This document shows, piece after piece, positions 5,808 to 26,428 of a DNA stretch of 27,433 nt (the stretch's first letter is position 1; every line of letters starts with the position of its first letter). Source of the stretch: a virus (Duplodnaviria; Heunggongvirae; Uroviricota; Caudoviricetes); IMG/VR virus record IMGVR_UViG_3300029042_000255. One strand, written 5' to 3'. The translations under genes and the position numbers were made by a program. The notes beneath the pieces were generated by a model. That model was not told the origin of the DNA, made no database searches, and saw nothing but the letters and a program-made list of their open reading frames with translations.

Positions 5808-5839
5808 GCTTAATAAGCCTGCAGGAAGGCTTATTAAGC
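5808..5839 (-). promoter_or_regulatory. perfect 12-bp inverted repeat (GCTTAATAAGCC-N8-GGCTTATTAAGC) between endolysin stop and chaperone start
   Basis: Read directly; revcomp of the right arm equals the left arm. On the mRNA it lies just before the chaperone RBS; the downstream tract is only partly U-rich. Confidence 0.45.
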
Positions 5840-5845
5840 GTAAAA

Positions 5846-6291: not shown

Positions 6292-6296
6292 TGCTG

Positions 6297-6593: not shown

Positions 6594-6596
6594 GGT

Positions 6597-7052
6597 TCAC
6601 CCCATCAGTCCGCGCACGTCGTTCTCTGAGAGAACGGGCACGCCGTTGATACGCACAAAGTCAGGGCTTGCCACCACGTACTTGATTTTGTGCGTGGTCA
6701 GATCTGCGCTCTCGGTGTCAATGCTTAACAGGCCGGAAAGCATCAGCTCACAACCGAAGGCTTCAACGCGGATTTCTTCGGTTCCCGTATTGGCGTAAAA
6801 CACAAAATCCATTGGCGGCAGGTCACGCCACGATCCCGCCTGAGCAGCCACTTCCCCGAGCTGGTTAAAGCTGCGGGTACTCATTTCGATTTCACCTTCG
6901 GCACTGACAGGGCCGCGCAGTTTGCCGTCAGGGATGCCACGGGTTTTGGCAACGGCGCTTTCATCGCTGATGTCCAGTGAGATGCTTTTCACATGGATAT
7001 CCGTTCCACCGATAAAAGTGTCAAACGCCATGCCGTTAATGCGGGTCGTCAT
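6597..7052 (-). CDS. putative tail tube protein
   Basis: 151 aa. ATG overlaps the stop of the upstream putative sheath gene (ATGA). Assigned by size and position; no family signature recognised. Confidence 0.45.
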   Translation of the reverse strand: MTTRINGMAFDTFIGGTDIHVKSISLDISDESAVAKTRGIPDGKLRGPVSAEGEIEMSTRSFNQLGEVAAQAGSWRDLPPMDFVFYANTGTEEIRVEAFGCELMLSGLLSIDTESADLTTHKIKYVVASPDFVRINGVPVLSENDVRGLMG

Positions 7053-8197
7053 GCGTTTTCCTCCAGAGATTTATCCAGCTGAATGCCCACTTTGATGGTT
7101 TTAGGGCAGGCGTAAGGGCGGACGACAATGCTGATGCTGACCGTCTTTTCGTCCTGCCAGGTGATAACCACGTCGCCTTTTTTTGGGGATTTCACTTCAC
7201 CCGGAAACGTGATGCCGTTAATTTGCATGGATTTCGCCATAGCACGCAGTGGGCGGGCAAACAGCGTTTCATGTGCGGCAATGCTGCCCGGCGTGCTGTT
7301 CAGCGAGCGGTCGGCAATCTTGGGGATGGCCATCAGCCGCACGCGGCGCGCCACCTTATCAGCAATGCGGACATGCTCAATGACGTTGTAGTCCCCGCCT
7401 TCCACCTCAAGTGTTACACCGTCAGCCCAGTAAAGGCCGTCATAGTCGGCATACCACATGGGCACGCTGTAGCGGGCGGTTGCCAGTGCCTGCAGAGTGT
7501 CGAGATCAATTGCCTGCCCTGCGCTGTCTTTCGGGCGTTCCGTGGTCTTCAGTGCGGACAGCGCCCCGGTTGCCACACGCGCCGGACTGTCAGCAATGGT
7601 GACGGCGCTGTTACACAGACGGCCGGCAAGAACGCCCGGTTCAAATCCAAAAATTTCCGGAACCAGCATGATTTGCGGGGCGGCGATGCCTTCCTGTAGC
7701 GTGGTCAGTTCAGCAACGTAATCTGCCCAGGTTTTGCTGCCGTTATTGGCGGCAATGGTCAGAATGAACCAGATGCGGCGCTGATATTTATTGATGATGG
7801 TCTGACGTAACGCCTGTATGGCGTTGATGTCATCCTTCGTGCTGACCGGTTCGGTGATCACCACGCCTTCAACTGAAACAGTTTCCTGAGCCGCCAGTAT
7901 GGCGTTCTGCCATACCTGGCAGGCTGGCGTCGCTTCTTTGCCTTTGCCGGCTTCCGGCAGAACGGCAACATAGAAAAAGGCATTCTGTCCGGCATTGGTC
8001 AGCGCAGACCGAAGGAAGTTCTTCAGCGGGCTGGCGTTCGTTCCCAGTAGCTCATCCAGATCACTGTTGGCATTAACCGGCAGAACCTTACCTTTGTTGT
8101 TTTGTGCATTGCCCACAAACAGCAGCGTATTTTCCACGCCGTCCGGCGAGCTACTGAACGTGTTGTACTGTTCAATTGTGACAGATGGCCAGGTCAT
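7049..8197 (-). CDS. putative tail sheath protein (not obviously P2 FI-like)
   Basis: 383 aa from ATG at 8197 with AGGAGA SD (track ORF extends to 8329). Size and position upstream of the tube gene fit a sheath; I could not recognise P2 FI motifs. Confidence 0.4.
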   Translation of the reverse strand: MTWPSVTIEQYNTFSSSPDGVENTLLFVGNAQNNKGKVLPVNANSDLDELLGTNASPLKNFLRSALTNAGQNAFFYVAVLPEAGKGKEATPACQVWQNAILAAQETVSVEGVVITEPVSTKDDINAIQALRQTIINKYQRRIWFILTIAANNGSKTWADYVAELTTLQEGIAAPQIMLVPEIFGFEPGVLAGRLCNSAVTIADSPARVATGALSALKTTERPKDSAGQAIDLDTLQALATARYSVPMWYADYDGLYWADGVTLEVEGGDYNVIEHVRIADKVARRVRLMAIPKIADRSLNSTPGSIAAHETLFARPLRAMAKSMQINGITFPGEVKSPKKGDVVITWQDEKTVSISIVVRPYACPKTIKVGIQLDKSLEENA

Positions 8198-8216
8198 AAT
8201 TTGTCTCCTGATTTTG

Positions 8217-8930
8217 TTATCTCGTGCCGCCGTAATGCAGGCTGCGCAGCTGCGCCTCCAGAATGCGGGCAAATTCAGCATCGCTGGCTCCCAGAAATGC
8301 GCGGGAGGGGATTTTGATTTCCCATACACGTTTTTTCTGCTCGCCTTTCAGAATGCTGATCACCAATCCGGCCTGCGCCATACTCATGTTTTCCATAATC
8401 CATTTCAGAGAAGGCTTTCTGCGTCCCCTGCGTCCGGTTTTTTTGCTGACTGCGCCGACGGGGGCGCGAAAGCCCAGAGAAAGAAGGCGTTCTGCCTGCC
8501 GTCGTGTGGCGGGACGGGTGCGCATGGCTTCGCTGTCCCGGCGTTTTGTGGCGCGGCCTTTGATGGTTGCGCCGTGCTGTTGCACCCACGCGACCGCCCC
8601 ACCATGAGAGCCGGTGTTGTAATCCCCTTTTTTGAAGAAAAGGCGGACACTTTTCCCGCTGCCGTCAACCCTGATGGCCAGCAGTTTCGGCAGTCCCAGC
8701 AGCATTTTGTTTTTATACCTGCCGCTGGCTTTATCCGGTCTTTTTCGTGGTGCCCAGGCTGCCCCCTCCGGTGTTCGCTGTGCTTTCACATTGCGTCGAG
8801 CAGCCGGTATCAGGCCGTATTTCGCAATGCGAACCAGCAGCTTTCTGGCCTTTGCCGGCGGAAGTTCTGCCTCTCTGATGGCGCGACGAACCTGCCGGAG
8901 TTGTGACTCGTTAATCACGGGGCGCGTCAT
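8217..8930 (-). CDS. virion morphogenesis / tail completion protein (P2 gpS / Mu gpG family-like)
   Basis: 237 aa, basic. ATG overlaps the stop of the R-like gene (ATGA). Contains a ...PEGAAWAPRKRP... segment recalling the virion-morphogenesis family. Confidence 0.45.
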   Translation of the reverse strand: MTRPVINESQLRQVRRAIREAELPPAKARKLLVRIAKYGLIPAARRNVKAQRTPEGAAWAPRKRPDKASGRYKNKMLLGLPKLLAIRVDGSGKSVRLFFKKGDYNTGSHGGAVAWVQQHGATIKGRATKRRDSEAMRTRPATRRQAERLLSLGFRAPVGAVSKKTGRRGRRKPSLKWIMENMSMAQAGLVISILKGEQKKRVWEIKIPSRAFLGASDAEFARILEAQLRSLHYGGTR

Positions 8931-9407
8931 GGCATCACCTGGCAGTGAAGCTGATGCGCCTGAGCCACCCAGATTTCAGGCTTTTCCAGCTGGTAACGTT
9001 TCCCGCCTCTGGGGATGGGGCCGTTTTCGTCCTCAACCAGGGTGATGGGATCAACCAGCGGCAGACTGATTTCCAGCCATGCCACTTCATTTTCATCATC
9101 CACTTCGACGTCAACGGCTGGNNNNNNNNNNNNNNNNNNNNNNNCGCTGGCGCAGGTCGCCGCCGTTGTCTGCCAGCCAGGCTTCAACCAGAGAAAACAC
9201 CAAATCTGGATTGAGCTGACGATAGGGCCATGCGTCCCATCGCAGAAAAGCCGTATATTTTCGGACCTGCGTACATAACTGCCCGTGCCCCAGCGACTTC
9301 GTAAACGGAACGAGCGTGATGTCATCCATGTCACTGGTGAACGGAATGCGTGCGCGTGCCGGCAGATTGTTTTCAATGAATGCCGTCAGGCTGGCGAGTT
9401 GCGTCAT
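8927..9407 (-). CDS. tail completion protein, P2 gpR-like; reading frame broken by an assembly gap
   Basis: The two track ORFs (9111..9407 and 8927..9376) are N- and C-terminal parts of one ~160-aa protein, in different frames across the N run. N-part motif LVEAWLADN resembles P2 gpR VLAWLREN. Confidence 0.5.
9122..9144. other. run of 23 N (unresolved bases / assembly gap)
   Basis: Literal n characters in the sequence. Confidence 1.
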
Positions 9408-9416
9408 ACCATTTCC

Positions 9417-9911
9417 TTAATCAATCAGCGCGATGGATGCACGCGGTCGGCCCAGCAGCGCCCGCACCGCCATGGCTGCTTCAGCCAGCAACGTCCGGCG
9501 GCTCTCGCTGGCTTCTGTTGATGACTGCGCCTCGCGCCGCCCCACGCTGGCAGATTCCGGCAAAAGATCGGCCTTTGCGCGGGCATACACAGCCTTGGTG
9601 TACAGTGCTGTAATGTGGTTCTGCATCCGTTGAGGCTGTGCATCCGTGTTGCGCGGCTCTGGTTGCAACACGGTGTAACCCGGAATATCAGTGGCCCGGA
9701 TGTAGCCCTGTTCCTGCCAGTATTCACGGCGTGCAGCCAGTTCAGTGTTAATCTCTGTTACCGCGCAAAGCAGCGCCGTCAGCACCGTTTCGTGTGACGT
9801 GACGGCGGGGATGCTGCGGCTCTTTTCAAAATCGCCGGCATCAATATCCGGCCAGAATCCATCGCTCTGAATAATGGCCTGTTGATAGTGAATGCTTTTC
9901 CCGTCAAACAT
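9417..9911 (-). CDS. L: head completion/stabilisation protein, P2 gpL-like
   Basis: 165 aa from ATG at 9911 (GGAGTGAG SD); the track ORF extends upstream. Contains NHITALYTKAVYARAKADLL...RREAQSSTEASE, resembling the gpL family core. Confidence 0.75.
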   Translation of the reverse strand: MFDGKSIHYQQAIIQSDGFWPDIDAGDFEKSRSIPAVTSHETVLTALLCAVTEINTELAARREYWQEQGYIRATDIPGYTVLQPEPRNTDAQPQRMQNHITALYTKAVYARAKADLLPESASVGRREAQSSTEASESRRTLLAEAAMAVRALLGRPRASIALID

Positions 9912-10009
9912 GCTCACTCCGGGGAAAGGCGGGCTGACCGGTTTCCGCAGTGTGCTGATGGCTTTTGCCGGCACACCTCCACCGCGCCCGCCCGGTTGTT
10001 GGGAGTCGT

Positions 10010-10720
10010 TTACGTGCCCTGCAACGCGCGCAGTCTTGCGGCAATGCGCTGGCGCAGGGTTTTCACCTGAATTTTGGGATGCAGCCAGGCAGCCCGTTCC
10101 AGGCACTGGTCGGCCTGTTGCAGTCTCTCCGGATCGTTAATTGCACTGGCCAGCGGTTTACCGTCATCGCCGCGCAGCAGCAGGACGCCTGCAAAGCGCC
10201 AGTAGCGGGCAGCAAGGCGTTCATTCACGCGCCATTTGTCACGGATTTTTTCAAACACCTGCTGAAAATATGGCGCGATACTGTTCCCGCGTTCAGCTTC
10301 GGTTTCTGCCCATTCAAGAATGAAATGGGCCACAAACGTTGGCAGCTCGCTTTTGAAGTTCTCCGGCGTCTTTTGCCCCTGCTCAATGGCAATGTCAGCC
10401 CACCGCAGCGCCATCTCAAACTGCCCGGTATCGAACAGCCAGATGATGCAGTACACCAGAATGGGATTCTGATAGACGCGTTCCCCCTCCAGATAAGCCT
10501 GTGCGTGTGGCAGCCAGCGGGGCAGCAGCGTGTTCCGTTTGAATTCCAGCTTGTCAGACAGCAGCTCCATGTTGTGCAGTTGTCTGATGTCGTTATTCAG
10601 TGCCAGCAGCTTAATGTGCTGGCTCTCTGTACTGACGGCGCTCCCGTCCGTTCTGGTCATGAGTGCTGCACGGCGCTCATCCATCTGTCGGGCACGTTGT
10701 CGCTGCATTGGCGTTGGCAT
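10010..10720 (-). CDS. M: terminase small (endonuclease) subunit, P2 gpM-like
   Basis: 236 aa. Position between capsid N and L is P2 head-operon synteny. Confidence 0.75.
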   Translation of the reverse strand: MPTPMQRQRARQMDERRAALMTRTDGSAVSTESQHIKLLALNNDIRQLHNMELLSDKLEFKRNTLLPRWLPHAQAYLEGERVYQNPILVYCIIWLFDTGQFEMALRWADIAIEQGQKTPENFKSELPTFVAHFILEWAETEAERGNSIAPYFQQVFEKIRDKWRVNERLAARYWRFAGVLLLRGDDGKPLASAINDPERLQQADQCLERAAWLHPKIQVKTLRQRIAARLRALQGT

Positions 10721-10737
10721 ACCGCGCGCTCCGTTTA

Positions 10738-11751
10738 TCAGGCGATGGTTACCGCAGACTCATCCACGGCAGCATATAAATCCGGATCGCCCAGGGCGTA
10801 ACCCTCATAACGCCAGTATGAGTTTTCGAACTGTTTGCGATCGCCCACATCTTCTGCCTTACGACGGCGGGACCCTTTCAGCGTCAGGATCTGCAGATTT
10901 GGCAGCATGGTCACTACCATACGCTTGCCCGGCATAAACGGCGGAATGATGGCCTTGCGGCCTGCGATGTTCTTCGTCAGCAGCTGTGCGGCCACTTTTT
11001 CGGTAGGCTTGTCCTCTTTGTTGTAGAGGCGCAGTTCTTCAGCAGCCACAAGGTCTGCGCCAACCAGCACGGTAAGGCGAGGATCGTTGTGATACTGCGC
11101 CGGGATGTAAGTGCGGATCAGGTCTGAGGCCATAGCGTCAAGACCGACATAATCACCGCCTTCGCCCAGGGTAACGGCGTCCGTCAGAATACGGGAGGTA
11201 TTGCCGGGCTGTTCTCCCCATTTTCTGGCGATTTCATGCCATCCGATGTTGACGTCTTCACCGTTCGGATTACTTTCAGGATCGGAGTTTTCTGCGGCTG
11301 TTTTACCGTTAAAGCCAATGCGCAGCATATCCAGCGCAAAGTTGGTGACGGCGGCGGAGTTCATCAGATTGAAAAATTCCTGCGGGCTGCCGGCATTCGC
11401 CCAGATGGCGAGTTGTTCCCAGGTGATCACACAGCAGGAATCAGTTTCAACGAGTTTGAATTCGTTGCCTTTGATGCCCGAACCTTTGGCGAAACGACCA
11501 CTTTTCACGCGACCAGTGCGCAGCGTGGATTCGCCCACGGTGACGACCTGCCCCTGCGGGTGCGGAACATCCATGCAGGTGGTGAAATTCAGAAACTCCG
11601 TGCTTTCCAGCAGGGCTTTACGCAGAGCAATACTGCGTGGCTCGGTCAGCGAAAAGAAACGATCGCTTGATTTCCCGCAGTCACTGAATGTTTTTTGCAG
11701 TTCGCTGATGTACTGATTAACCAGCTTTTGTGCTTCTGGTGTCATGTTCAT
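10738..11751 (-). CDS. N: major capsid protein, P2 gpN-like
   Basis: 337 aa. Follows the scaffold gene as in the P2 O-N-M-L operon. Confidence 0.8.
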   Translation of the reverse strand: MNMTPEAQKLVNQYISELQKTFSDCGKSSDRFFSLTEPRSIALRKALLESTEFLNFTTCMDVPHPQGQVVTVGESTLRTGRVKSGRFAKGSGIKGNEFKLVETDSCCVITWEQLAIWANAGSPQEFFNLMNSAAVTNFALDMLRIGFNGKTAAENSDPESNPNGEDVNIGWHEIARKWGEQPGNTSRILTDAVTLGEGGDYVGLDAMASDLIRTYIPAQYHNDPRLTVLVGADLVAAEELRLYNKEDKPTEKVAAQLLTKNIAGRKAIIPPFMPGKRMVVTMLPNLQILTLKGSRRRKAEDVGDRKQFENSYWRYEGYALGDPDLYAAVDESAVTIA

Positions 11752-11765
11752 TGCGTTCTCTCCGG

Positions 11766-12656
11766 TTACACCAGGTTAAAAGTTTCGCCACCGGCCGGAT
11801 TGTTGCCCGGCAGCTTCGTGGCGTCCTTGCTGAGTTCAGCAAATGCGGTTTCCATACTGGTGACTTTCTCCGCGATGGCGTTCACCGTGGAGAACAGCTT
11901 TTCGCCCTGCTCGGTGGTCAGCGTGAAGGTTTTGTCGTCCTTGTTGTTCTGTTCTGCGTTGTCCTGCCCCTGATCGCCGGTGCTGCCTTCCGGCTTGTTA
12001 TCACCGGTATCTTTCGGGGCATCCTTCGCGCTGAACTGCGCGACGTTTTCTTCCAGTTTGCCCAAGCGTTCGCCGGTTTTGTTGATGGCGTCCATCAACT
12101 GACCGAACTGTTTTTCGTTCATATCGTTTTCCTGTTTGTTGCGTCCCACGGAGAAAAGGCCGGAAAAGAAACTGCGTTTGGCCTGCTCGTCGTCAGACTG
12201 CAGCGTGAAATTCAGTTCTTCTGCATTCCCCATGTGAATGGAGTCTCCCTGCGAAAATTGCAGGCGGGTGGTGTTGATGCTGGCCGGAGTGTCAGTTACA
12301 GCGATGCCGGATACAAAGAATTTGCCTGTTCCCAGGTAGTTTTCCTTTACCTCTATGGAGGTGAAAAGTTTTTGCCCGGCCTCGTTGGCTTCGGTCAGAA
12401 AGCGGTTGGGTATCAGGCGGGCTTTCAGTTGCACTTTATCACCGGCTTTTTCTGCCTTCAGTGCATCAACAAGACCATAGTTATTGGTGAAAGCACGCCA
12501 GCCGGCGCTGGCATGAAACGGCCAGAGCATGGCAGTGTGTTCGTCCGGGTTATAAACCTCGGCGGCATCCGTCAGCCACTTTGGATCAATTTCCCGACCG
12601 TCGATGGTGGGGCCTGAAGTGGCTACGACCACCCAGTCTGTTTTCAGTTTCGACAT
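11766..12656 (-). CDS. O: capsid scaffolding protein, P2 gpO-like
   Basis: 296 aa. Motifs GREIDPKWLTDAAEVYNP, LVDALKAEKAGDK and GKFFVSGIAVTDTPAS parallel P2 gpO; acidic coiled C-terminal half. Confidence 0.8.
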   Translation of the reverse strand: MSKLKTDWVVVATSGPTIDGREIDPKWLTDAAEVYNPDEHTAMLWPFHASAGWRAFTNNYGLVDALKAEKAGDKVQLKARLIPNRFLTEANEAGQKLFTSIEVKENYLGTGKFFVSGIAVTDTPASINTTRLQFSQGDSIHMGNAEELNFTLQSDDEQAKRSFFSGLFSVGRNKQENDMNEKQFGQLMDAINKTGERLGKLEENVAQFSAKDAPKDTGDNKPEGSTGDQGQDNAEQNNKDDKTFTLTTEQGEKLFSTVNAIAEKVTSMETAFAELSKDATKLPGNNPAGGETFNLV

Positions 12657-12738
12657 CTGAATTAACCCGCTGATAAAAATTAACTGAGCGTTATTTAAGT
12701 GGGAAATAAAAAAACCGTCACCTGATTAATTTCCGGTG

Positions 12739-12766
12739 TTTTCGGATATACGCATATATCCGAAAA
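12739..12766. promoter_or_regulatory. perfect 12-bp palindrome (TTTTCGGATATA-cgca-TATATCCGAAAA) in the divergent O/P late-promoter region
   Basis: Read directly from the 194-bp AT-rich intergenic region between O (minus) and P (plus); followed by a short CCGAAA direct repeat. Confidence 0.5.
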
Positions 12767-12850
12767 ATACCGAAACGCGATATTCGTTTTTAAAAAGGCC
12801 TTTACTGAAAATGCATAAATTAAAATGGCATCAGCAGAGATTGATTATTT

Positions 12851-14635
12851 ATGGCGTACTCTGATGAAGTGATTGCTGCAGCAAAATCACTCTATCTGAA
12901 AAGGCACACCCCAAAAGAAATACAAAAGAAGCTCGGACTGAACAGCCCGCGAATTGTTTATTACTGGGCGACAAAGTTTGAGTGGTACACACAGCTTAAT
13001 ACTGAGGGCGTGGAGGATGTCATCGCCCGGCGTCTCGCTGTACTGGCGGAGCGTGACCATAAAACCCAGGAAGAGCACGATGAACTCGATCGCCTGATTG
13101 GCCACCACGTCAAACTGATGTCGGTCAGGAACAAGCACACAGAACGAATGGCCGAGATAGAACGAATGGGGGCTGATATTCCCCGGTCTGGCCGTTATGG
13201 AAAAGAAGAGCGCGGAGAAAAAGACGCGGATAAGAAAGAGCGTCGTCGTAAAGCTAATGATGTGTCAGGGCTGACAGCAGAGAGTTTTGAGCCGTTTACC
13301 AAAAAACTGTTCGCTTATCAGTTGCATCTGCGTGAAAACAAATTCCGTCGTGTACGCAACCTGCTTAAATCGCGCCAGATTGGGGCGACGTATTACTTCG
13401 CGTTTGAGGCGTTCGAAGATGCGGTATTAACCGGCGACACACAGATATTTTTATCGGCATCAAAACGTCAGGCCGAAGTGTTCCGCACCTATATCGTTAA
13501 GATTGCACAGACGGAATTTGGCATTCCCATTAAAGGCAACCCGGTTAAGTTAAGTAATCTGGCTGAACTGTATTTTCTGGCGACCAACAGTAACACGGCG
13601 CAGTCAAACAGCGGCCACCTGTACATTGACGAATATCTGTGGATCCCCGGCTTTCGTCGCCTCAATGAAGTGGCGTCCGGTATGGCCACCCACTCGCACT
13701 GGCGCATTACCTACTTCTCCACGCCGTCAACCAAAACCCATCAGGGCTATCCGTTCTGGTCTGGCGATGAATGGCGCAAAGGCGATCCGAAACGAAAAGG
13801 GGTTGAGTTTCCGTCCTTTGATGAGCTGCGCGATGGCGGGCGCGAATGCCCGGATGGCCAGTGGCGCTATGTGGTGACAATGGAAGATGCCATTGCCGGC
13901 GGCTTTAACCTTGCTGACATCAACGAACTGCGCGAGCGGTACAACGAAACAGCCTTCAATATGCTGTTTATGTGCGTGTTTGTGGATGACAAAGAGAGCG
14001 TCTTTAAATTCGATGACCTCGTGCGCTGTGGCGTTGATATCAGTACGTGGGAGGATTTTCACCCGGAAGATGCCATGCCATTTGGAAACCGTGAAGTGTG
14101 GGGCGGCTTTGACCCTGCGCGCTCCGGCGATAACGCCACGTTTGTGGTGCTGGCACCACCGCTGGTTGCGGCAGAACGATTCCGCGTGCTGGAAAAACAC
14201 CACTGGCGGAGTATGTCATTCCAGTTTATGGCAGAGCGTATCCGCAGCATTAAGGCGCGCTATAACATGACGTTTATCGGCATTGATGTTACCGGGCTTG
14301 GCTATGGTGTCTTTGAGCTGGTTCAGGGATTTGCCCGCCGTGAAACAGTGGCCATTCATTACAGTGTTGAATCCAAAAACCGCCTGGTGATGAAGATGCT
14401 GGATCTGATTTACGCCAACCGTATTGAGTGGGATGAGGAAGCCACAGATATTCCGGCATCATTTCTGGCCATCCGTCAGGAATCCACCAACAGTGGCAAT
14501 AAAGTTACTTTTACCGCTGAACGTAGCGAAGAAACCGGGCACGCTGACATCTTCTTTGCCATCGCCCATGCAGCAAGTAACGAACCCCTGAACTATAAGC
14601 ACAAGCGCAAATCAACATGGATCTTTCCTGCATGA
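12851..14635 (+). CDS. P: terminase large (ATPase) subunit, P2 gpP-like
   Basis: 594 aa. Strong resemblance to P2 gpP around LKSRQIGATYYFAFEAFEDAVLTGDTQIFLSASKRQAEVF. Confidence 0.9.
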   Translation: MAYSDEVIAAAKSLYLKRHTPKEIQKKLGLNSPRIVYYWATKFEWYTQLNTEGVEDVIARRLAVLAERDHKTQEEHDELDRLIGHHVKLMSVRNKHTERMAEIERMGADIPRSGRYGKEERGEKDADKKERRRKANDVSGLTAESFEPFTKKLFAYQLHLRENKFRRVRNLLKSRQIGATYYFAFEAFEDAVLTGDTQIFLSASKRQAEVFRTYIVKIAQTEFGIPIKGNPVKLSNLAELYFLATNSNTAQSNSGHLYIDEYLWIPGFRRLNEVASGMATHSHWRITYFSTPSTKTHQGYPFWSGDEWRKGDPKRKGVEFPSFDELRDGGRECPDGQWRYVVTMEDAIAGGFNLADINELRERYNETAFNMLFMCVFVDDKESVFKFDDLVRCGVDISTWEDFHPEDAMPFGNREVWGGFDPARSGDNATFVVLAPPLVAAERFRVLEKHHWRSMSFQFMAERIRSIKARYNMTFIGIDVTGLGYGVFELVQGFARRETVAIHYSVESKNRLVMKMLDLIYANRIEWDEEATDIPASFLAIRQESTNSGNKVTFTAERSEETGHADIFFAIAHAASNEPLNYKHKRKSTWIFPA

Positions 14636-15666
14636 GTAAAAAGAAAAAACACCCGGTCAGAGATAAGGTTGTCATGAAAGAGGGAGTCGGCAAAATGACG
14701 TTTATTGAATTTGGTGACCCGGAACCGGTCGCTGCATGGGGCTGTTATTACGGCTCGCTCTGGGATGGCTATAACGGCTGGTACACGCCGCCCATTGAGC
14801 GCATGGATCTCGCCATGTTGTCCAATATCGCGCCGTATCACGGCGCGGTATTGCGTGCGCGCGTGAATATGATCATGCAGGGTTTTCGGGGTGGTGGTGG
14901 TATGACACACGCCGCCATGGCGGCAGCGGTGACCAATCTGCTGATATTCGGGGATATGGGGCTGCTTAAAGTGCGCAATGGCTTCGGTCGGGTGGTGCGC
15001 CTGCATACACTGCCGTCGCTGTACCTGCGGCGTAACAACGAGGGGGGCACGGTGATTGTGCAGGCGGCACTGGAAGATCTCGTTTACCCGCCAGGCGAAG
15101 TGGTGTTCTTGGCCATTTATGACCCGCAACAGCAGGTTTACGGTGTCCCGGATTATATCCACGGGATGGAGTCGGCGATGCTGAATGTGGATGCCACACG
15201 CTTTCGCCGCAAATATTACAAAAACGGCGCGCATCTGGGTTATATCCTGTATTCCACTGATCCCAATATGACGCCTGAGCTTGAGGCGGAATTTCGTAAA
15301 GAGATTGAAAACTCGAAAGGTGCTGGCAATTTTAAGTCCATGTTTATCAACATAGCTGGCGGAGACAAGGAAGGGGTTAAGGTTATCCCTATCGGGGATT
15401 CAGGCACAAAAGATGAGTTCCTGAATATAAAAACCATCAGTGCCCAGGATCAGCTCGTTGCGCACCGTTTTCCACCCGGACTTGCCGGCATCATTCCCGC
15501 AAATACGGCCGGGCTTGGTGACCCACTGAAATCCCGCGAGGCATATTACAGGGATGAGGTTATCCCGATGCGCCGCCTGATTATGGAGGGGATCAACAGC
15601 GACCCGGATATCAGACGACTGGGGGAGGTGAAATTTATTCTTGATTTTGATGAACCCATGGAGTGA
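14632..15666 (+). CDS. Q: portal (capsid) protein, P2 gpQ-like
   Basis: 344 aa from the ATG overlapping the terminase stop (ATGA); an upstream ATG at 14617 is the alternative. Co-oriented with P as in P2. Confidence 0.8.
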   Translation: MSKKKKHPVRDKVVMKEGVGKMTFIEFGDPEPVAAWGCYYGSLWDGYNGWYTPPIERMDLAMLSNIAPYHGAVLRARVNMIMQGFRGGGGMTHAAMAAAVTNLLIFGDMGLLKVRNGFGRVVRLHTLPSLYLRRNNEGGTVIVQAALEDLVYPPGEVVFLAIYDPQQQVYGVPDYIHGMESAMLNVDATRFRRKYYKNGAHLGYILYSTDPNMTPELEAEFRKEIENSKGAGNFKSMFINIAGGDKEGVKVIPIGDSGTKDEFLNIKTISAQDQLVAHRFPPGLAGIIPANTAGLGDPLKSREAYYRDEVIPMRRLIMEGINSDPDIRRLGEVKFILDFDEPME

Positions 15667-15731
15667 TGTGCGGTATGGGGAAAGAGCGGGTAAAATCGGT
15701 GGCAGTAAAACGCTGTTCCGGGAGGTGGAAA

Positions 15732-15989
15732 ATGCGCAGACAGAAAGCGCGATGTCATTGCTGCGGTGCACATGCAGTGATTGAGAAAACAGCCTGGAAA
15801 ACCGATCTGTTTGCTGATGTGTATTACCGTTGCACCCGTCTCGAGTGCGGACATACCTGGGTGATGAATCTGACCTACTCGCACACACTGGTGCCCAGCG
15901 GGCTGGAGAATGGTGTGTTAAAGCTGTTGATTGAGCGGATGCGTCCGGAAGAAAAACAAATGGCTCTGGAGTTGTTGCAGGCCGGATAG
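15732..15989 (+). CDS. ogr: late-gene transcriptional activator, Ogr/Delta zinc-finger family
   Basis: 85 aa from ATG with GGAGGTGG SD. Exact C-x2-C-x22-C-x4-C spacing (CHCCGAHAVIEKTAWKTDLFADVYYRCTRLEC) diagnostic of Ogr/Delta/B activators. Confidence 0.8.
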   Translation: MRRQKARCHCCGAHAVIEKTAWKTDLFADVYYRCTRLECGHTWVMNLTYSHTLVPSGLENGVLKLLIERMRPEEKQMALELLQAG

Positions 15990-16009: not shown

Positions 16010-16062
16010 AACCCGGAACGGGCGCACAAAGAATTTGCGCACCCGTTCCGGGTTTTCTTATT
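16010..16062 (+). terminator. intrinsic terminator: 13-bp perfect stem (AACCCGGAACGGG / CCCGTTCCGGGTT) followed by TTCTTATT
   Basis: Read directly. Lies between the ogr stop (15989) and the stop of the convergent Rrf2-like gene (16058). Confidence 0.75.
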
Positions 16063-16417
16063 CAATGGCAGACAACTGATAATTTGTGTCTTCCTGCAGG
16101 CTGGTTAAAGAAATATTATCCAGTGCAGCCAGAATAACGTGCTGTGTATATAATCCGGAACATTTCATTGCCCGGACAATATCACCAACACTGTAATTTT
16201 CTTTTGTTGGGATATATCCACCACCCGGGCCGCGTGTGGCTTTTACCAGGCTACTTTCCCGTAAATATCTGAATATTTGCTCCAGATATGACAGTGAAAC
16301 GGTTTCTTTGCTTAATTGCCGGAGCGAGATTGGCTTTCCGGTGTACTGTTTCACAAATTTAATCATTACCATAACTGCAACTGATGCACGCTGGCTTCCG
16401 GAATTATCTTTCATCAT
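16058..16417 (-). CDS. Rrf2-family winged-helix transcriptional regulator (short form, no Cys cluster)
   Basis: About 120 aa. Rrf2 signature ...SLSYLEQIFRYLRESSLVKATRGPGGGY...; start at the MMKD ATG pair. Confidence 0.6.
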   Translation of the reverse strand: MMKDNSGSQRASVAVMVMIKFVKQYTGKPISLRQLSKETVSLSYLEQIFRYLRESSLVKATRGPGGGYIPTKENYSVGDIVRAMKCSGLYTQHVILAALDNISLTSLQEDTNYQLSAIE

Positions 16418-16428
16418 GATTACTTCCA

Positions 16429-16716
16429 TTAATGGCATAAATTGATGGAGCGGGTCAGTGAATAAAGAGGCAATACATTCCATCCCTTAGAGCGCCAGCT
16501 GTCTGCAACATCTTTACTTCTTGTTATCGCCGGTATTCCAATAGGATTATTTGCGTGCATCCATGCCACTGGCTCTGCTTCCAGTGATGCAAGTGCGATT
16601 TCCAGTGCGATTAACATATTGTGATCGTCTTCATCAAGACCGAACGGGATGTCTTCGCGCCACGATTTAAACTCTGTGATTTTACGTTGTAACCATTCTT
16701 TGGTAATGGTGGACAT
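16429..16716 (-). CDS. hypothetical protein, 95 aa
   Basis: ATG at 16716 with AGGAG SD 5 nt upstream. Starts 14 nt after the ParR-like stop; its stop is 11 nt before the Rrf2-like start. Confidence 0.5.
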   Translation of the reverse strand: MSTITKEWLQRKITEFKSWREDIPFGLDEDDHNMLIALEIALASLEAEPVAWMHANNPIGIPAITRSKDVADSWRSKGWNVLPLYSLTRSINLCH

Positions 16717-16730
16717 AGTTACTCCTGTTT

Positions 16731-17045
16731 TCACTTCGGGAAAAACGCCTGAATATTCTTTTTCACCTGCTGCATATGGGGGGCGCTGTCTGCTGCTGGT
16801 TGCGCCGGTTTTTCAGGCTGTACTGGTAGCGGTGGCATCCTTATTTCGTCTTCTGACCATTCTGCCAGCGAATACGCCAACGCGGGGGTGCGTTTTATAA
16901 GAGCCAGTCCAGCCAGAAAAGCCGCGCGTTGTGCGCGGCTGCGTTCGGAGGCTGGCAGGCTGTCGAGGTAACTGCACGCCTCCCGTTCGCTCTTGACGAC
17001 GGCGGGCTTCAGATAGAAACTTATCCGTCTGGTTGGTGTCGTCAT
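16731..17045 (-). CDS. parR: ParR-like centromere-binding protein (type II partition adaptor)
   Basis: 104 aa from ATG at 17045 (AGGAG SD inside the last ParM codons). DSLPASERSRAQRAAFLAGLAL closely parallels R1 ParR DSIPQGERSRLNRAALTAGLAL. Confidence 0.65.
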   Translation of the reverse strand: MTTPTRRISFYLKPAVVKSEREACSYLDSLPASERSRAQRAAFLAGLALIKRTPALAYSLAEWSEDEIRMPPLPVQPEKPAQPAADSAPHMQQVKKNIQAFFPK

Positions 17046-17049
17046 TGAT

Positions 17050-18009
17050 TTACTCCTTGTCCATTGCGTACAGCCCATTAACCAGAGCAAATTGTGGCAC
17101 CCCGTCCGCGATGAAAGTCGCATTAACTCCGCAGGCTTCGCGGATAGCGGGTGCCACAATCTCCGCTCCTCCACCTACAACCATCACCCGCCCGTAACCC
17201 GAAAAACCCGCCAGCGCGCGGATCACGCGTTGTTTCAGTGTTTCCTCCTTTTCACGAATAACTGCCATCAGGCTGGCGTAATGCGTGTCATTGTGGATGT
17301 GCTGGCGCAGCCAGGCTTCATCGTGGCGATGTTCGATAATGGTATTGGCGATGTGGTGACTGGTGCGCATACCGTTGGTGGCCATCACCGACAGCACGGC
17401 ATCGGCCATCAGAGAAACGCCTACGTGTGGATCGCAAAACACCTGGCTGATACCTGCCAGTTGCCCCTGAACCTTTGCCACATCCAGCGTGGTTCCGCCC
17501 AAATCCACAATCAGCAGGGATTCAAACGGACTCATGTCAGCCAGTGCTTTAAAGCCAGCCGGAATGGATTCAGGCATAACCCGCACGTTACGGATAGTGA
17601 ATGTCTCGCCGTTCTGGTACTCCACCGGGCGCATAACGTTCGCTTTTTTGCGGTTGATGTTGGCCATGTCCGGCTGTGCGTTTGTGTCGAAATACTCGCT
17701 CAGTGGCAGGGTGACAACCACATCCACCTCCTGTGGCGTGATGCCTGATTTGACCAGCGCGTGATGAATGGCAATGACATTCACATCGCTGTACTGGTAT
17801 TGCGTGTCGGTCGTCTGGACAAAGCGATCGCTGACCGGATCAAAACCATAGCGCACACCATCAAGCATGTAGTTCGCGGGCTGCGTGCCACCGAACGGCG
17901 CAGACCATTCCGACTTGAAGCTGTTCGGGCTGATGGCGTTGCGGCGTTCGCCGTTCTCAGTCCATGCCAGCTTGATGTTGGTGGAGCCGTCATCGATACA
18001 AATTTTCAT
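17050..18009 (-). CDS. parM: ParM/StbA-like actin-type ATPase (type II plasmid partition)
   Basis: 319 aa. Multiple blocks shared with R1 ParM: MKICIDDGSTNIKLAW, SPNSFK.EW, YSDVNV.AIHHAL, ERKKAN, TFTI.NV.VMPESIPAG, LIVDLGGTTLD, VMVVGGGAE, LVNGLY. Confidence 0.8.
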   Translation of the reverse strand: MKICIDDGSTNIKLAWTENGERRNAISPNSFKSEWSAPFGGTQPANYMLDGVRYGFDPVSDRFVQTTDTQYQYSDVNVIAIHHALVKSGITPQEVDVVVTLPLSEYFDTNAQPDMANINRKKANVMRPVEYQNGETFTIRNVRVMPESIPAGFKALADMSPFESLLIVDLGGTTLDVAKVQGQLAGISQVFCDPHVGVSLMADAVLSVMATNGMRTSHHIANTIIEHRHDEAWLRQHIHNDTHYASLMAVIREKEETLKQRVIRALAGFSGYGRVMVVGGGAEIVAPAIREACGVNATFIADGVPQFALVNGLYAMDKE

Positions 18010-18040
18010 GTCGCTTTTCCTTATGTTGATTAATTAATCG

Positions 18041-18152
18041 TTTACGGGATTCTGAAATCCCGTTTTTGCCTGTTTTATGCGCGCTTCATATATAGCGGCG
18101 CGTTTTTTGCTCATTTACGGGATTTGTGAATCCCGTTTTTGTCTGTTTTTTG
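18041..18152. repeat. two ~39-bp direct repeats, each with an 8-bp-stem hairpin (ACGGGATT-N4-AATCCCGT) plus T-tract, flanking a third imperfect hairpin; candidate parC centromere/promoter or ori element
   Basis: Unit 1 at 18041-18079 and unit 2 at 18114-18152 are about 34/39 identical. Unit 2 and part of the middle hairpin lie inside the last ~22 codons of the gpA-like ORF. Confidence 0.5.
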
Positions 18153-20926
18153 TTTCCACTGGTCAGGCCACCCCGCAGCAGGTCTGCTTTGCGGCGGGCG
18201 CGTTCAGTTGTTTCACTGATTCTCTGTTCGTGCTCTGCGTCGCGGATGGCGCGCAGCATGTCAGAAAGTACGGTAACGGGTGTTTTCATGGTGTTCTGGT
18301 CCTGCTGAAGTGTGGATGCCAGGCGTGCGGCGGCTTCGGGGTCTGATTCCCCCAGCTGTGCCAGATAGCTGGCGACCGGGTTATGGCGGATCTCCGTGCT
18401 GCTTACGCCGTGATTACGGCTCAGGCGCTGCCAGAGCTGCGTGATTCGGCTGTCCGGGCGGGTATCCGGTTTGCGTACAATTTCAAATCCCTGCGGTGCA
18501 ATGATGCTGCCGTCAACGCACAGACTGCCGCCCCGTAACAGGTGCTGCATCTGTTGTTCACCGATATGCAGGCCGAGAGATTCAGCAGACTCCCGCCATT
18601 CTTTAGCGAGTAATTCGTGGTTATCAGGCAAAGGCCGCTGCTGTTTGCGGCTCTGTGTCCAGCTCTGCATTTCATCACTGCTGTTTTTTGCCTGTTTGTC
18701 ACGAAGCGAACGCATCAGCGCCCGGCGTTCGTGCCGTTTCAGTGAGCGCATCCATTCGTTCACTTCAACGCCGTCAGGGAGCTGCGGCCACGGTGCTGGC
18801 CGTTCTTCCGGCTGTTCTGTCCCGTTGTTGTCCGTTTCCTGTACACGGGGACAGTTATTGCCACGAGTCCAAGGGGCGGCAGGGCCGCCCTGAAGGTCAA
18901 AACCATTTTCGCGGGCGCTGTCTTCCGCTTCCGGTTTGCGTCTTACCAGCTTCCAGTTATCCGGATGCGTGCATACGCGGGAAGACTCCCCAATGAGCGG
19001 CGACCAGATCCCGTAAATCTGTACGCTCTGTTCACCGTAATCGTTCAGCTCATCTGCGAGGTCGTAGGCGGTGCGAATCAGGTAGTCTTTGCGTGGAACA
19101 AGTACGCCACCCTGTTTCTCAATGTAGGTGGCAAAACATCCGGCATCAGCGGCAGCGAGTACCGCGTCCATTGCGTCATCCTTCAGCCGTTGCGGGCCTT
19201 CCGGGTTGCGTGCCATCTGGCTGGCAAGGCGGCGCAGTTCACGCCACACCTGACGGGAGGGGATACCAAAGAACTGGAACTGGCGGACCCGGTGAAGGCG
19301 CGCCCAGCCGATGGCGCGTTCCACGCTCTCGGCCATTGATTTTCCGGTTTCGTGGTCAACGCGTGGCTTGCCCGTTTTCGGGTCGATGCCATCCACGGCG
19401 CGGCTGTCCAGGTTCTTTCCGATGTAGGTGGCGATGTAGCTGGTTGGTGTGCCTTTTGAGCCGTCTACGTACTCCGCCTTAAAACGCGGAGTTATGTCAT
19501 CGCCCAGCTCGTGGCGGTCTTCCTGAATGGCAATATCGCAGACGTGGGACACGATGGTTTCAATCTCGTCCGGATGTGCAAAGACCATCATATGCCAGTG
19601 CACAGTGCCGTCATGGTGAGGCTCCACCGTGCGGATGCCATACCAGCGCAGACCGTCGCGGTTCAGTTTTTTGCGGACCGCCGCAAAAAACGTGTTAACC
19701 AGGTAATCGCTGGAGTCGCGCATGGTGGCCCCGTTCCATTTGGGGTTCGGATGACCGTTCTCCGTTGTTGCGTGGTATTTTGACGGGCAGGTGACAGTCA
19801 GAAACACCGCTCTGTCGCCACGGGCTTCGGCCAGAAGTTCCAGTCCCTTCATGGTGGCCATCATTTCTGCCTTACGGTGAACCGGGTTACTTACTCCCGC
19901 GTAATACACCGTCTCGAGATCAATCGTGAACCCGTCTTCATTTTCCAGCATGAAACTTTTCAGAAAATCGCGTGTTTTCTCGCGCTGTGCGCGAAACTCG
20001 CTTAACGCGTCCTGGCTCAGATAGGGTGATGTTTTTCTGGAAACCAGACAGGCGGCACGGAGTTGTTCTTCCCGCCACTCGCAACGTAAAAGCCACAGTT
20101 TGTGTTTCCACCATTCCGCACAGGTCAGGCGAAGGATGGCACCCGGCAGCAGCTCCGTATTCGGTGCGTTCTTCCGGTCTTTGTCCGTTCTCAGTGCTTC
20201 GTAATGCGGCGGCATGGTGTGCAGATGTAACGCCATGCGGGCCAGCATCTGATACGCCTTCAGCGCAATTTTCATGGTCAGCTCGCCATCGGTCGCGCCA
20301 AAGTTATCGCAGAGTGTTTCAAAAGTGCTGCTGAACATCGCCGCCGTCATGGTGGCCAGCGTCTGTATCTGGTGTTTGTTGAGCTGCGGCAGGTAAAGCA
20401 AATCGTCCAGGCGTTCGCGTCCGGCAAGGGAGCAATAACACGGTGTCAGCCAGCGTCCGTCAGTGCGTTTCAGACGTTTGAATATTTTGAGCAGGGTTCC
20501 TTGTGCATAGCGTTCTGCCAGCCTGGCGTTTTTTCCTTTCTGGCGGTCAGATTCCTGCTTCTTACGTAAAAAAGAGAGGCGGCGGCTCAGGGGGTCTCGC
20601 AGATAAACGGGAAGTGCCTTCAGTTCGGCAAAGGCGCAGGCCACCGGGTCTTGCTTTATTTCCTGGCGCTTACTGATGATGTTTTTTATCAGTTTTTCGC
20701 GTTGCCCGGCTTCCTCAAGGGATGCCATGAGTTTTTTACCCATGGCGGATTGTGCGAAAAAGGCTTCTTCCTTCGCATCCTGTTCTTCCTGAGCCTTTTT
20801 GTCCGCCTCATAGTAGTAACGAATGGCGCGTTGCAGTCCGGTTTTTGGCAACTGGCTGAAGTTCGCGAAGTCGTCCGGATCAATAGCTGGCTGCGGTTCA
20901 TTCCAGCTCCATGCAAACTCACTCAT
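18086..20926 (-). CDS. A: replication initiation protein, P2 gpA-like HUH rolling-circle endonuclease
   Basis: 946 aa from ATG at 20926, which overlaps the stop of the upstream gene (ATGA). HUH motif (VHWHMMVFAHPDE) and paired-tyrosine motif (SYIATYIGKNLD). Confidence 0.75.
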   Translation of the reverse strand: MSEFAWSWNEPQPAIDPDDFANFSQLPKTGLQRAIRYYYEADKKAQEEQDAKEEAFFAQSAMGKKLMASLEEAGQREKLIKNIISKRQEIKQDPVACAFAELKALPVYLRDPLSRRLSFLRKKQESDRQKGKNARLAERYAQGTLLKIFKRLKRTDGRWLTPCYCSLAGRERLDDLLYLPQLNKHQIQTLATMTAAMFSSTFETLCDNFGATDGELTMKIALKAYQMLARMALHLHTMPPHYEALRTDKDRKNAPNTELLPGAILRLTCAEWWKHKLWLLRCEWREEQLRAACLVSRKTSPYLSQDALSEFRAQREKTRDFLKSFMLENEDGFTIDLETVYYAGVSNPVHRKAEMMATMKGLELLAEARGDRAVFLTVTCPSKYHATTENGHPNPKWNGATMRDSSDYLVNTFFAAVRKKLNRDGLRWYGIRTVEPHHDGTVHWHMMVFAHPDEIETIVSHVCDIAIQEDRHELGDDITPRFKAEYVDGSKGTPTSYIATYIGKNLDSRAVDGIDPKTGKPRVDHETGKSMAESVERAIGWARLHRVRQFQFFGIPSRQVWRELRRLASQMARNPEGPQRLKDDAMDAVLAAADAGCFATYIEKQGGVLVPRKDYLIRTAYDLADELNDYGEQSVQIYGIWSPLIGESSRVCTHPDNWKLVRRKPEAEDSARENGFDLQGGPAAPWTRGNNCPRVQETDNNGTEQPEERPAPWPQLPDGVEVNEWMRSLKRHERRALMRSLRDKQAKNSSDEMQSWTQSRKQQRPLPDNHELLAKEWRESAESLGLHIGEQQMQHLLRGGSLCVDGSIIAPQGFEIVRKPDTRPDSRITQLWQRLSRNHGVSSTEIRHNPVASYLAQLGESDPEAAARLASTLQQDQNTMKTPVTVLSDMLRAIRDAEHEQRISETTERARRKADLLRGGLTSGNKKQTKTGFTNPVNEQKTRRYI

Positions 20927-21312
20927 GGCTGGTATCCCGTCACGCGCTGCCACTCCTGCGAGAAGATGACGGAAAGGCGGTTAAATTCAGTGGTGTATTC
21001 ACTCAGCGAGGCACACCCGCCAGCGGTACGATGCGCCAGCATTGCCGCAAATACGGAGGCCGGGGAGTTGTAATACGCCAGCAGGGAGTCGCCGTGTGGT
21101 GTCAGGGTGTACAGGGCCAGACCTTGTGGCGTGAAAGCTACGCGGTAACAGTCGTCCACGGTGAAATAAAGGGTGTCTGCGTTCTCCGGTTTTGTGGTGC
21201 GTGCCCGGCTGGCGCGGGCACGGAGATAAAAATCAAACATTGCCTGAAGTTTTGGGGCCAGACGGGTGTCCTGTGTGCGCACCCATTTTACGAAGTCGTG
21301 ACGGTCAATCAT
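20923..21312 (-). CDS. hypothetical protein, 129 aa
   Basis: ATG with AAGAGA SD; stop overlaps the gpA-like start. Confidence 0.5.
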   Translation of the reverse strand: MIDRHDFVKWVRTQDTRLAPKLQAMFDFYLRARASRARTTKPENADTLYFTVDDCYRVAFTPQGLALYTLTPHGDSLLAYYNSPASVFAAMLAHRTAGGCASLSEYTTEFNRLSVIFSQEWQRVTGYQP

Positions 21313-21983: not shown

Positions 21984-22814
21984 TTACTTCACCGGAACAA
22001 ACGGAACAGCGGTATTGCTGGTCATGTATTGCGGTAGCGTGCCGTTCCATTTGTTGATTGCTTCCAGCTCCATAACGCCGGGATTCTGGCGCAGAGCTTC
22101 ACCGCGTAAACGAATGGCGTCGGCTTCAGCCTGGGCTTTTGTGCGAATGGCATCAGCCTGTCCGGCAGCTTCTGCGCGCAGCATGTTGGCTTCTGCTTCG
22201 CGTTGCTTGACTTCCTGTTCGCGTTGCAGGGTTTTCTGGTTTGCCGTGACTTTGGCGTTAATGCTGTCGATAACGGTTGGCGGATATTCCGGTTTACCGA
22301 CATAAGAGAGGCTCATGACCTGAATGCCGATGGGGGTCATCTCTTCTTGAATATCTTTAAGTGCTGAATCCAGCAGTTCAGACTTACCACCGTCGATAAA
22401 CTTATCGGTGGTCATTTTGCTGGCCAGTCGGTTGAGTGCATCGGCGATCTTCTGGCGCAGGTCAGTGTCGGTAATGTCATCCACGCCTTTGCGGTAGGTC
22501 TGAAACACTGTGGTAACTTTGGATGGATCAACCTTGTAGGCCACACCGATGTGATAGCCGATGGTTGTGCCGTCACTCATCTGAAAGCTGAACGGCTCAT
22601 CGTAGGTCTTCATTTGTTTGAAGGTCGGGAAGATGTAAACCTCGGTATTCCAGCCTGTCCAGTAGCGGCCAACGCCAACCACTTCACCGACGCCTTTATC
22701 GTCGCCCAGTTTGTTGACTTTGATGCCCACATTACCTGGTTCAACGCGATCGCAACCAACCAGCAGGATGGCGGCAAAAAGCGGGATAATCTGAAAGAGT
22801 TTGAATTTCTTCAT
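21984..22814 (-). CDS. SPFH/band-7 (HflC/stomatin-like) lipoprotein
   Basis: 276 aa. N-terminal signal peptide with lipobox (FAAILLVGC). C-terminal coiled-coil rich in RAEAAGQADAIRTKAQAEADAIR, typical of HflK/C-type SPFH proteins. ATG overlaps the upstream stop (ATGA). Confidence 0.6.
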   Translation of the reverse strand: MKKFKLFQIIPLFAAILLVGCDRVEPGNVGIKVNKLGDDKGVGEVVGVGRYWTGWNTEVYIFPTFKQMKTYDEPFSFQMSDGTTIGYHIGVAYKVDPSKVTTVFQTYRKGVDDITDTDLRQKIADALNRLASKMTTDKFIDGGKSELLDSALKDIQEEMTPIGIQVMSLSYVGKPEYPPTVIDSINAKVTANQKTLQREQEVKQREAEANMLRAEAAGQADAIRTKAQAEADAIRLRGEALRQNPGVMELEAINKWNGTLPQYMTSNTAVPFVPVK

Positions 22815-26332: not shown

Positions 26333-26428
26333 GGCCAGAAAACTGGTTAGACCTGCTTTTTGTCTGGTCTGATTATTGCTGGAAAGAGGCTGGAGAAATT
26401 GTAGAGCGGTTCATTGGAGGGCTTCGCA

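Follow-up and report, generated by a model that had tools for sequence, protein, structure and literature searches.

General features of the locus

The 27,433-nucleotide viral sequence IMGVR_UViG_3300029042_000255 from IMG/VR (hereafter the window, meaning the whole stretch that was analysed) is a P2-family prophage in which P2-type capsid, scaffold, terminase and portal genes lie opposite the early block. This report concerns a plasmid-type partition system, parM and parR, situated next to the replication gene of that early block, and the two small genes which follow it. The pair proved to be a genuine partition system of the R1 type (type II) that belongs to the core of its phage lineage, and the data place the start of the neighbouring variable region inside parR itself.

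The four genes are all on the minus strand. The first, parM (17050–18009), specifies an actin-like segregation ATPase of 319 amino acids, recognised by Pfam and by its match to the ParM protein of plasmid R1; it is followed by parR (16731–17045), the product of which is a ribbon-helix-helix-type adaptor of 104 amino acids (Pfam Plasmid_stab_B). The third gene, orf95 (16429–16716), encodes a 95 amino acid phage protein resembling Eaa and the N-terminus of DUF551 proteins, as judged from the names of its homologs and from PHROGs, and the fourth (16058–16417) a 119 amino acid, IscR-like winged-helix regulator of the Rrf2 fold (Pfam Rrf2). The gaps between them are 4, 14 and 11 nt, and a Shine-Dalgarno sequence precedes each of the four; an original prediction made from the letters of this DNA had described good Shine-Dalgarno sequences for parM and parR. 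An Escherichia coli chromosomal locus adjoining pheA, 99.2% identical, carries all four in its RefSeq annotation, with boundaries that agree. The true start of parR is the ATG at 17045, giving 104 amino acids, and not that of a GTG-initiated open reading frame (ORF) of 147 codons; the Rrf2-like gene starts at 16417, giving 119 amino acids.

Upstream of parM, adjoining it and in the same orientation, is gene A (18086–20953, minus strand; Pfam Phage_GPA 6.4e-128), which encodes the rolling-circle replication initiator gpA. A repeat search also revealed a candidate centromere, parC, at 18038–18152 on the minus strand, composed of two 42-nt direct repeats containing dyads.

The ParM and ParR proteins

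Profile searches of the kind suggested in the original prediction confirmed that the two proteins are ParM/StbA and ParR of the R1 type. ParM contains the Pfam StbA_N domain (E-value=1.5e-82) and the ParM C-terminal domain (E-value=2.6e-68), and it matches R1 ParM (PDB accession number 1mwk) with an E-value of 1.1e-93 over residues 2–316. The motifs DDGST, MPESIP (E147), VDLGG (D169) and GGGAE are all present, and alignment showed that equivalents of R1 residues D6/D7, E148 and D170, as well as the GGGAE adenosine motif, are retained. The protein thus possesses the phosphate-binding, catalytic and adenosine motifs of an actin-fold ATPase; loss of the nucleotide-binding residues, which the prediction had named as grounds for giving it up, was not observed.

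ParR possesses a Plasmid_stab_B domain (PF10784; E-value=4.4e-24, 84.5 bits against a cutoff of 25), and shows a weak match (E-value=0.009) to the structure of pB171 ParR (2jd3). Its N-terminal strand, TRRISFYLKP, is invariant among 45 alleles. When the protein was aligned with R1 ParR and three distant phage ParRs, the N-terminal strand and the helices proved to be conserved and the linker variable, and a conserved C-terminal motif, KKNxxxLFP (KKNxxxFFP in the protein of the window), aligned with the C-terminus of R1 ParR. In R1 ParR we take this tail to be the element that binds ParM, following the ParM-ParR peptide structure (PDB accession number 4A62). From these similarities ParR appears to be the small downstream adaptor of a type II system, with a DNA-binding N-terminus and a ParM-binding C-terminal peptide.

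The likeness to R1/NR1 ParMRC (StbA/StbB) extends to the order of the elements (cis site, parM, parR) and to the A-rich region upstream. ParM is 55% identical to its R1 counterpart over its full length and keeps the catalytic residues, and ParR is approximately 43% identical to IncF StbB over residues 1–63, its DNA-binding half, and shares the C-terminal motif. The differences lie in the setting and in the cis site: the R1 system is carried by a plasmid, whereas the present one belongs to a P2-family phage that integrates, and there follows immediately on gene A for the rolling-circle initiator. The R1 parC consists of ten A-rich 11-bp direct iterons, arranged as two sets of five flanking a promoter which is thus part of the site, while the candidate parC has two 18-bp dyads 73 bp apart and no clear promoter.

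A candidate centromere upstream of parM

The two 42-nt direct repeats lie 73 bp apart, and each holds an 18-bp dyad, CGGG-N10-CCCG. Dyad 2 (18045–18062) is situated 53 nt upstream of the parM ATG, and dyad 1 (18118–18135) 126 nt upstream of it, within the last codons of gene A. Each repeat contains the 20-bp palindrome ACGGGATTnnnnAATCCCGT, at 18044–18063 and 18117–18136; these are its only two sites in the window, where 0.11 would be expected. The region has a G+C content of 39%, and its A-tracts are phased at approximately 10 bp.

In E. coli, E. albertii and Salmonella the core pattern (C/T)GGG-N10-CCC(G/A) is found at positions −126 and −53 relative to the start codon of parM, and in every genus that has the pair its members are 72–73 bp apart. 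The pattern recurs at −132 and −60 in Plesiomonas and at −129 and −56 in Hafnia, where ParM is only 62–63% identical; the Plesiomonas prophage (ParM 63% identical) has two 26-nt repeats 72 bp apart. An additional ORF stands between gene A and parM in the Hafnia relative, and the dyads can therefore be said to travel with parM and not with gene A. This ORF (5453–5956 of locus L089) specifies 167 amino acids with no Pfam match, and the first dyad is located in its 3' end. In the Serratia relative the dyads are absent upstream of parM, and the N-terminal strand of ParR also differs, reading NRKISFYL against TRR(I/V)SFYL elsewhere.

There are, then, two conserved dyad-containing repeats which keep their position across genera and co-vary with the β-strand of ParR, in an architecture unlike that of R1. 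On these sequence grounds the region 18038–18152 is likely to be parC, and ParR would be expected to bind the dyads.

Distribution and conservation of parMR

The segment comprising parMR and gene A shows 93–98% DNA identity to coliphages P88, phiSM and P884B11 and to other Xuanwuvirus records. It is carried by approximately 24% of complete E. coli genomes (1304–1373 of 5426), strains of O157, O111 and ST131 among them, with up to three copies per genome. The junction between the 3' end of gene A and the 5' end of parM is intact in 1287 of the 1373 matching genomes (94%). Across 80 IMG/VR loci, ParM is 98–99% identical, gpA 85–93% and ParR 52–100%. The pairwise ratio of nonsynonymous to synonymous substitutions (dN/dS) of parM is about 0.05 (67 alleles): the function of parMR is held by strong purifying selection. 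The G+C content of parM and parR, 55–56%, is that of the phage backbone.

More distant prophages preserve the same arrangement. The order gpA, ParM, ParR, small variable genes, (ogr), portal and terminase is kept in Plesiomonas, Hafnia and Serratia, the ParM proteins of which are only 58–63% identical, and an integrase is present wherever the contig reaches far enough. These remoter relatives were recovered by protein searches; a contig scan with ParM yielded three species-level genomes only, namely E. albertii, Salmonella and one labelled Vagococcus. The last of these (NZ_JBQPOM010000071.1) is a 226-kb contig assigned to Vagococcus sp., a Firmicute, with a ParM at 97% identity, and it most likely represents contamination or a mislabelled enterobacterial contig.

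The original prediction had placed the module at the site of the variable old/tin accessory locus of P2. The interval, between gpA and gpQ, was correctly identified; ParMR is not an accessory occupant of it, since 94% of P88-type gene A 3' ends in E. coli run on into parM. Being fixed in the lineage and of backbone composition, parM and parR do not have the features of hotspot cargo. It had also been conceded that the partition reading would fail if the module were a conserved core feature of the lineage with a demonstrated non-partition role: the former is what was found, the latter was not.

Integrated or plasmid state

A second proposal made for this module was a dual lifestyle, in which ParMRC would enable the phage, instead of integrating, to be kept as a circular plasmid of low copy number. 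Several observations speak for such a facultative plasmid prophage. The cassette is a close homolog of a bona fide plasmid stabiliser, and among 50,697 phage records this type of ParM was found only in Xuanwuvirus and in the phage-plasmid D6. Furthermore, one complete P88-like genome with an intact integrase, Cox, ParMR and the full set of virion genes has been deposited as a circular plasmid record of 34,461 bp (NZ_CP148288.1). It originates from an E. coli isolate from a cat, a strain outside the complete-genome collection, and may be an episome that replicates or else an excised form picked up during assembly. Rousset et al. (2022) likewise propose the plasmid reading (PMC9122126).

The census data argue in the other direction. 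In the 5,426 complete E. coli genomes, 1533 of the 1535 places at which ParMR occurs are chromosomal, and so are all 311 copies with the integrase type of NZ_CP148288.1, most of them beside pdxB. In a plasmid collection of 72,556 records only one stand-alone phage circle was present, the other matches being in records of 227 kb to 1.4 Mb. The window itself encodes an integrase, and the only replication gene recognised in it is that for the rolling-circle initiator gpA, no plasmid-type replicon being seen. In P2-type lysogens the block containing gpA is repressed, which also counts against plasmid maintenance. Lysogens of phiSM have been shown experimentally to be integrated at pdxB (PMC6456863). 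An autonomous circular replicon in lysogens, the hallmark of a phage-plasmid, was thus not found as a regular state; a stable plasmid state of P88-like phages is rare at best, and as an explanation for the cassette we consider it unlikely. The proposed dual lifestyle accordingly finds little support.

The variable slot downstream of parM

The first 14 residues are common to all 45 ParR alleles, which beyond that point fall into deeply divided classes (52–54%, 64–67%, 79–86% and 95–100% identity at loci L002–L082), so that the boundary of the variable, mosaic region falls within parR. The switch of class at about codon 15, beside a near-invariant ParM, has the appearance of a recombination boundary within the gene, the strand and the C-terminal motif remaining conserved.

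From the parR stop codon to the portal gene the distance is 1.0–4.2 kb across loci, with many different contents; in the window ogr and the portal gene form the right-hand border of this slot. Among the cargo of sister loci PADLOC identified IetA/IetS (E-values of 4e-89 and 6e-41) and AbiLi/AbiLii; other loci carry pairs resembling Doc/Phd or small proteins without known function. IetA/IetS occupy the slot at L073, L076 and L081; at L004 and L067 it holds an AbiLi/AbiLii-like ATPase with a small TOPRIM-like protein, and at L012 and L063 a Doc-like toxin adjoined by a small protein. Many of the sister loci share a further small protein, which has a ClpX-type zinc-finger motif.

Rousset et al. 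described a hotspot in the same interval, between gene A and the portal gene Q, with highly variable content that includes defence systems (PMC9122126). There the partition system is counted as hotspot content, whereas in the phages considered here it is a fixed, lineage-wide block and variability sets in from approximately codon 15 of parR. The description does fit orf95 and the Rrf2-like gene, in position, in variable content and in foreign composition (42–44% G+C against 55–56% for the backbone). The view that these two co-oriented, tightly spaced, AT-rich genes are cargo is therefore upheld.

The orf95 protein

No Pfam or NCBIfam match was obtained for orf95 (44% G+C). It matches PHROGs 660, 60 and 5117, all of unknown function, and its homologs in enterobacterial prophages are named Eaa, DUF551-containing protein or, wrongly, valyl-tRNA synthetase. 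The family has an invariant LASLEAEPVAW core, the C-terminal parts being variable. An AlphaFold model (predicted local distance difference test score 83) consists of a helical hairpin and a small beta-beta-alpha-beta unit; a fold search against the PDB gave no match at an E-value of 0.001 or below, and one against BFVD returned uncharacterised phage proteins only.

The Rrf2-like protein

The neighbouring protein has a Pfam Rrf2 match of 3.9e-13 (50.1 bits against a cutoff of 30) and so possesses the Rrf2 winged helix. It scores below the NCBIfam cutoffs both for rrf2_super (52.8 against 73.3) and for the IscR equivalog (58.6 against 207.55 bits). Its best solved relative is nevertheless E. coli IscR (4hf0, E-value=8e-11), and the model superimposes on apo-IscR with a template-modelling (TM) score of 0.72. 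The two proteins have the winged-helix fold in common, and the SLSYLEQ recognition helix and the RGPGGGY wing are identical in both (PDB 4HF0/4HF1). They differ in length, 162 amino acids for IscR versus 119 for the phage-borne protein, and in the [2Fe-2S] ligand loop. IscR binds its cluster through three cysteines and one histidine; in the Rrf2-like protein the loop is missing, some 21 residues which bear the cysteine ligands in IscR homologs being deleted and a single cysteine being left. The protein is IscR-like in its DNA-reading parts and is not an IscR ortholog; it is most likely a signal-insensitive winged-helix DNA-binding regulator, and since it shares the recognition helix of IscR it may bind IscR-type sites. 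It is close to an orphan, with two clusters at 99% identity and one 51%-identical relative in a lambdoid-type early region; its gene has a G+C content of 42%.

The window was also scanned with an IscR type-2 site motif. The only match, with 3 mismatches, lies in ogr (15798–15823, plus strand), where 100 shuffles led to an expectation of zero. It is present as well in the ogr alleles of loci that lack the Rrf2-like gene, and was rejected as a probable coincidence.

Are orf95 and the Rrf2-like gene a defence pair?

It is conceivable that the two proteins form a two-gene anti-phage or exclusion system and are not independent accessory genes: the slot that they occupy carries known defence systems in sister phages, they are AT-rich, close together and of one orientation, and orf95 accompanies the Rrf2-like gene in 7 of the 7 IMG/VR loci where the latter occurs. 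We nevertheless regard this as improbable. PADLOC gave no hit at E-values up to 1 for ParM, ParR, orf95 or the Rrf2-like protein, and for that reason no defence call is made for any of the four. Neither member of the pair has an enzymatic or effector domain. In lambdoid and P2-like prophages members of the orf95 family are common and occur with no Rrf2 partner, and the 51%-identical relative of the Rrf2-like protein has different neighbours. The full ParM-ParR-orf95-Rrf2-like arrangement is found in only 37 of the 5426 E. coli genomes. The earlier notion of a cargo pair must be relaxed: the two genes co-occur here, and the association is not obligate.

Organization of the surrounding prophage

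On the far side of the slot lies the gene for an ogr/Delta-like late activator (15663–15989, plus strand; Pfam Ogr_Delta 1.8e-12), convergent with the Rrf2-like gene; the RefSeq version of it is shorter, at 85 amino acids. The portal (14617–15666) and terminase (12851–14635) genes likewise converge with the genes on the parMR side. The context given in the original prediction, a replication gene on one side and a convergent ogr/terminase end on the other, is as it had described, and the integrase which it mentioned, a tyrosine integrase, is present in the same window (26414–27433). A 21-nt inverted repeat (16010–16054, assigned to no strand) separates the convergent Rrf2-like and ogr genes and is likely to be a bidirectional terminator that ends the leftward operon.

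A Cox homolog and a C-like helix-turn-helix repressor are also encoded. Every gene from cox (25632) through the Rrf2-like gene (16058) is oriented leftward, and there is a strong promoter-like site upstream of cox. A terminator scan found no sense-strand terminator between gene A and 16054. Within the early block is a gene of the SPFH/Band_7 family (21984–22814, minus strand), flanked on the same strand by terminator-like hairpins, upstream at 22980–22963 and downstream at 21815–21800; it may be another accessory insertion.

The structural half of the window (1–15600; tail, head, terminase and portal) has no near DNA match among the 50,697 phage records, and its portal protein is only 29% identical to that of P88. 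The prophage is thus made up of a P88-like early, replication and ParM block joined to a virion module that is unrepresented among sequenced isolated phages.

Proposed role of ParMRC

P2-family phages replicate by a gene-A-dependent rolling-circle mode and package monomeric circles, and many free circles should in consequence be present during the replication phase. On such a free circle, whether newly arrived by infection or excised and being replicated by way of gene A, dimers of ParR would bind the two CGGG-N10-CCCG dyads. The conserved C-terminal helix of ParR would capture the ends of ATP-ParM filaments, the growth of which would push sister phage circles apart. The transient episome and its replication products would in this way be positioned or distributed, and no stable plasmid prophage would be maintained.

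Action on a transient circle is favoured because the cassette ends a co-oriented early/replication block and because a precedent exists. In prophage CGP3 of Corynebacterium glutamicum the AlpC/AlpA/alpS system is induced early after excision and ties circular phage DNA to actin-like filaments; AlpAC is needed for efficient replication of the excised phage DNA (PMC4446434). Each system belongs to an integrated prophage and pairs an actin-like filament protein with an adaptor that binds DNA and with a binding site upstream, this site being a candidate in the present case. They differ in that the P88-like ParM is a close member of the R1 family and AlpC a remote relative of R1 ParM, and in that CGP3 belongs to another host phylum and phage type; the P88-like system is known here from its sequence. 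Both the time of parMR expression and the biological role of the genes we infer from these comparisons.

The whole reading has three parts: that the locus is a complete R1-type (type II) ParMRC cassette with a candidate centromere, that ParMR is a vertically inherited core element of the early/replication block of P88-like P2-family phages, and that the cassette acts on the transient circular phage genome. For the third part, as for the three jointly, belief and doubt seem to us about equally balanced.

A number of observations weigh against it. R1 parC has ten iterons and the candidate site a much smaller number, two dyads, so that the centromere assignment could be wrong or incomplete. A simple scan of the candidate region revealed no convincing sigma-70 promoter, which leaves autoregulated expression in the lysogen a mere possibility. 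The downstream hairpin of the SPFH/Band_7 gene (21815–21800) is a possible sense-strand terminator, and transcription from the cox-proximal promoter could then stop short of gene A and parMR. A degree of episomal carriage would agree with the free-standing 34.5-kb circular record. The analogy with AlpAC is functional only, AlpC being a distant actin-like protein from a different type of phage, and searches of the literature yielded no experimental study of ParM from phages described as P2-like, Peduoviridae or Xuanwuvirus.

Besides the two alternatives already discussed, ParMR might act in the lysogen to the advantage of the host or the prophage, for example by excluding plasmids, satellites or related phages that enter the cell, or through incompatibility with them of the partition type. 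Its position at the edge of the gpA–gpQ hotspot, where relatives carry IetAS and AbiL-like genes, would suit such a role, as would the depth of ParR allelic diversity beside a near-invariant ParM and the presence of up to three copies in a genome. This is very unlikely, however: ParM and ParR drew no defence call, and the cassette is fixed beside gene A and is not exchanged as true cargo is. Moreover, conservation across alleles extends to the strand with which ParR reads DNA, to its ParM-binding tail and to the dyads, and this argues that binding specificity is not diversifying.

A reading of the dyads, at the gpA/parM junction, as RNA hairpins or as intrinsic terminators of antisense transcripts was rejected as scarcely probable: on the plus strand each E. 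coli dyad does form a hairpin of 8 bp with TTTTT after it and is scored as a terminator, but in Plesiomonas and Hafnia, with stems of 3–4 bp, loops of 10 nt and no T-run on either strand, only the CGGG and CCC(G/A) half-sites and the N10 spacing are kept, and this conservation of half-site geometry and of position relative to parM is what is expected of a protein-binding site.

The transient-circle reading can be extended to the cargo. The ParMRC spindle, derived from plasmids, would then be a core device of the phage cycle, acting on the free circle with a minimal two-dyad centromere, either during rolling-circle replication and the packaging of monomer circles or between infection and integration; in this sub-lineage a cluster-less mimic of IscR would additionally occupy host IscR sites regardless of iron-sulphur (Fe-S) status. 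We put this fuller version, including the stages named, forward as a tentative possibility.

Relation to earlier work and significance

A partition system in approximately a quarter of P2-like phages, with plasmid maintenance as its suggested role, was reported by Rousset et al. in 2022, and Table S5A of that study lists exactly the same gene arrangement with identical protein accessions (PMC9122126). The novelty implied by the original prediction is therefore not borne out: the finding is real and the gene-level description correct, but the arrangement had been catalogued and the headline hypothesis published. Four points are new here. A quantitative case is made against a plasmid lifestyle; ParMR is recognised as a vertically inherited core block kept by strong purifying selection, with the edge of the hotspot lying within parR; a candidate centromere of two dyads is described, together with its conservation in more than one genus; and the Rrf2-like protein is identified as a cluster-less, IscR-like regulator.

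The published hotspot map is refined by these results, in that the variable region of these phages begins inside parR and not at gene A; for this reason annotation pipelines should neither class ParMR as cargo nor read a plasmid lifestyle from its presence. The cluster-less IscR-like protein provides a small and specific lead on the manipulation of host Fe-S regulation by phages. A plasmid segregation machine kept by an integrating phage lineage in about one quarter of E. coli genomes is a concrete and testable puzzle, and P88 and phiSM, both cultivable, make the phage genetics tractable. It is a well-posed question in tractable phages and not a new kind of system. If the machine does organise the transient circle, the AlpAC precedent would come to apply also to the bacterial host that has been studied most and to the actin-like system that is understood best.

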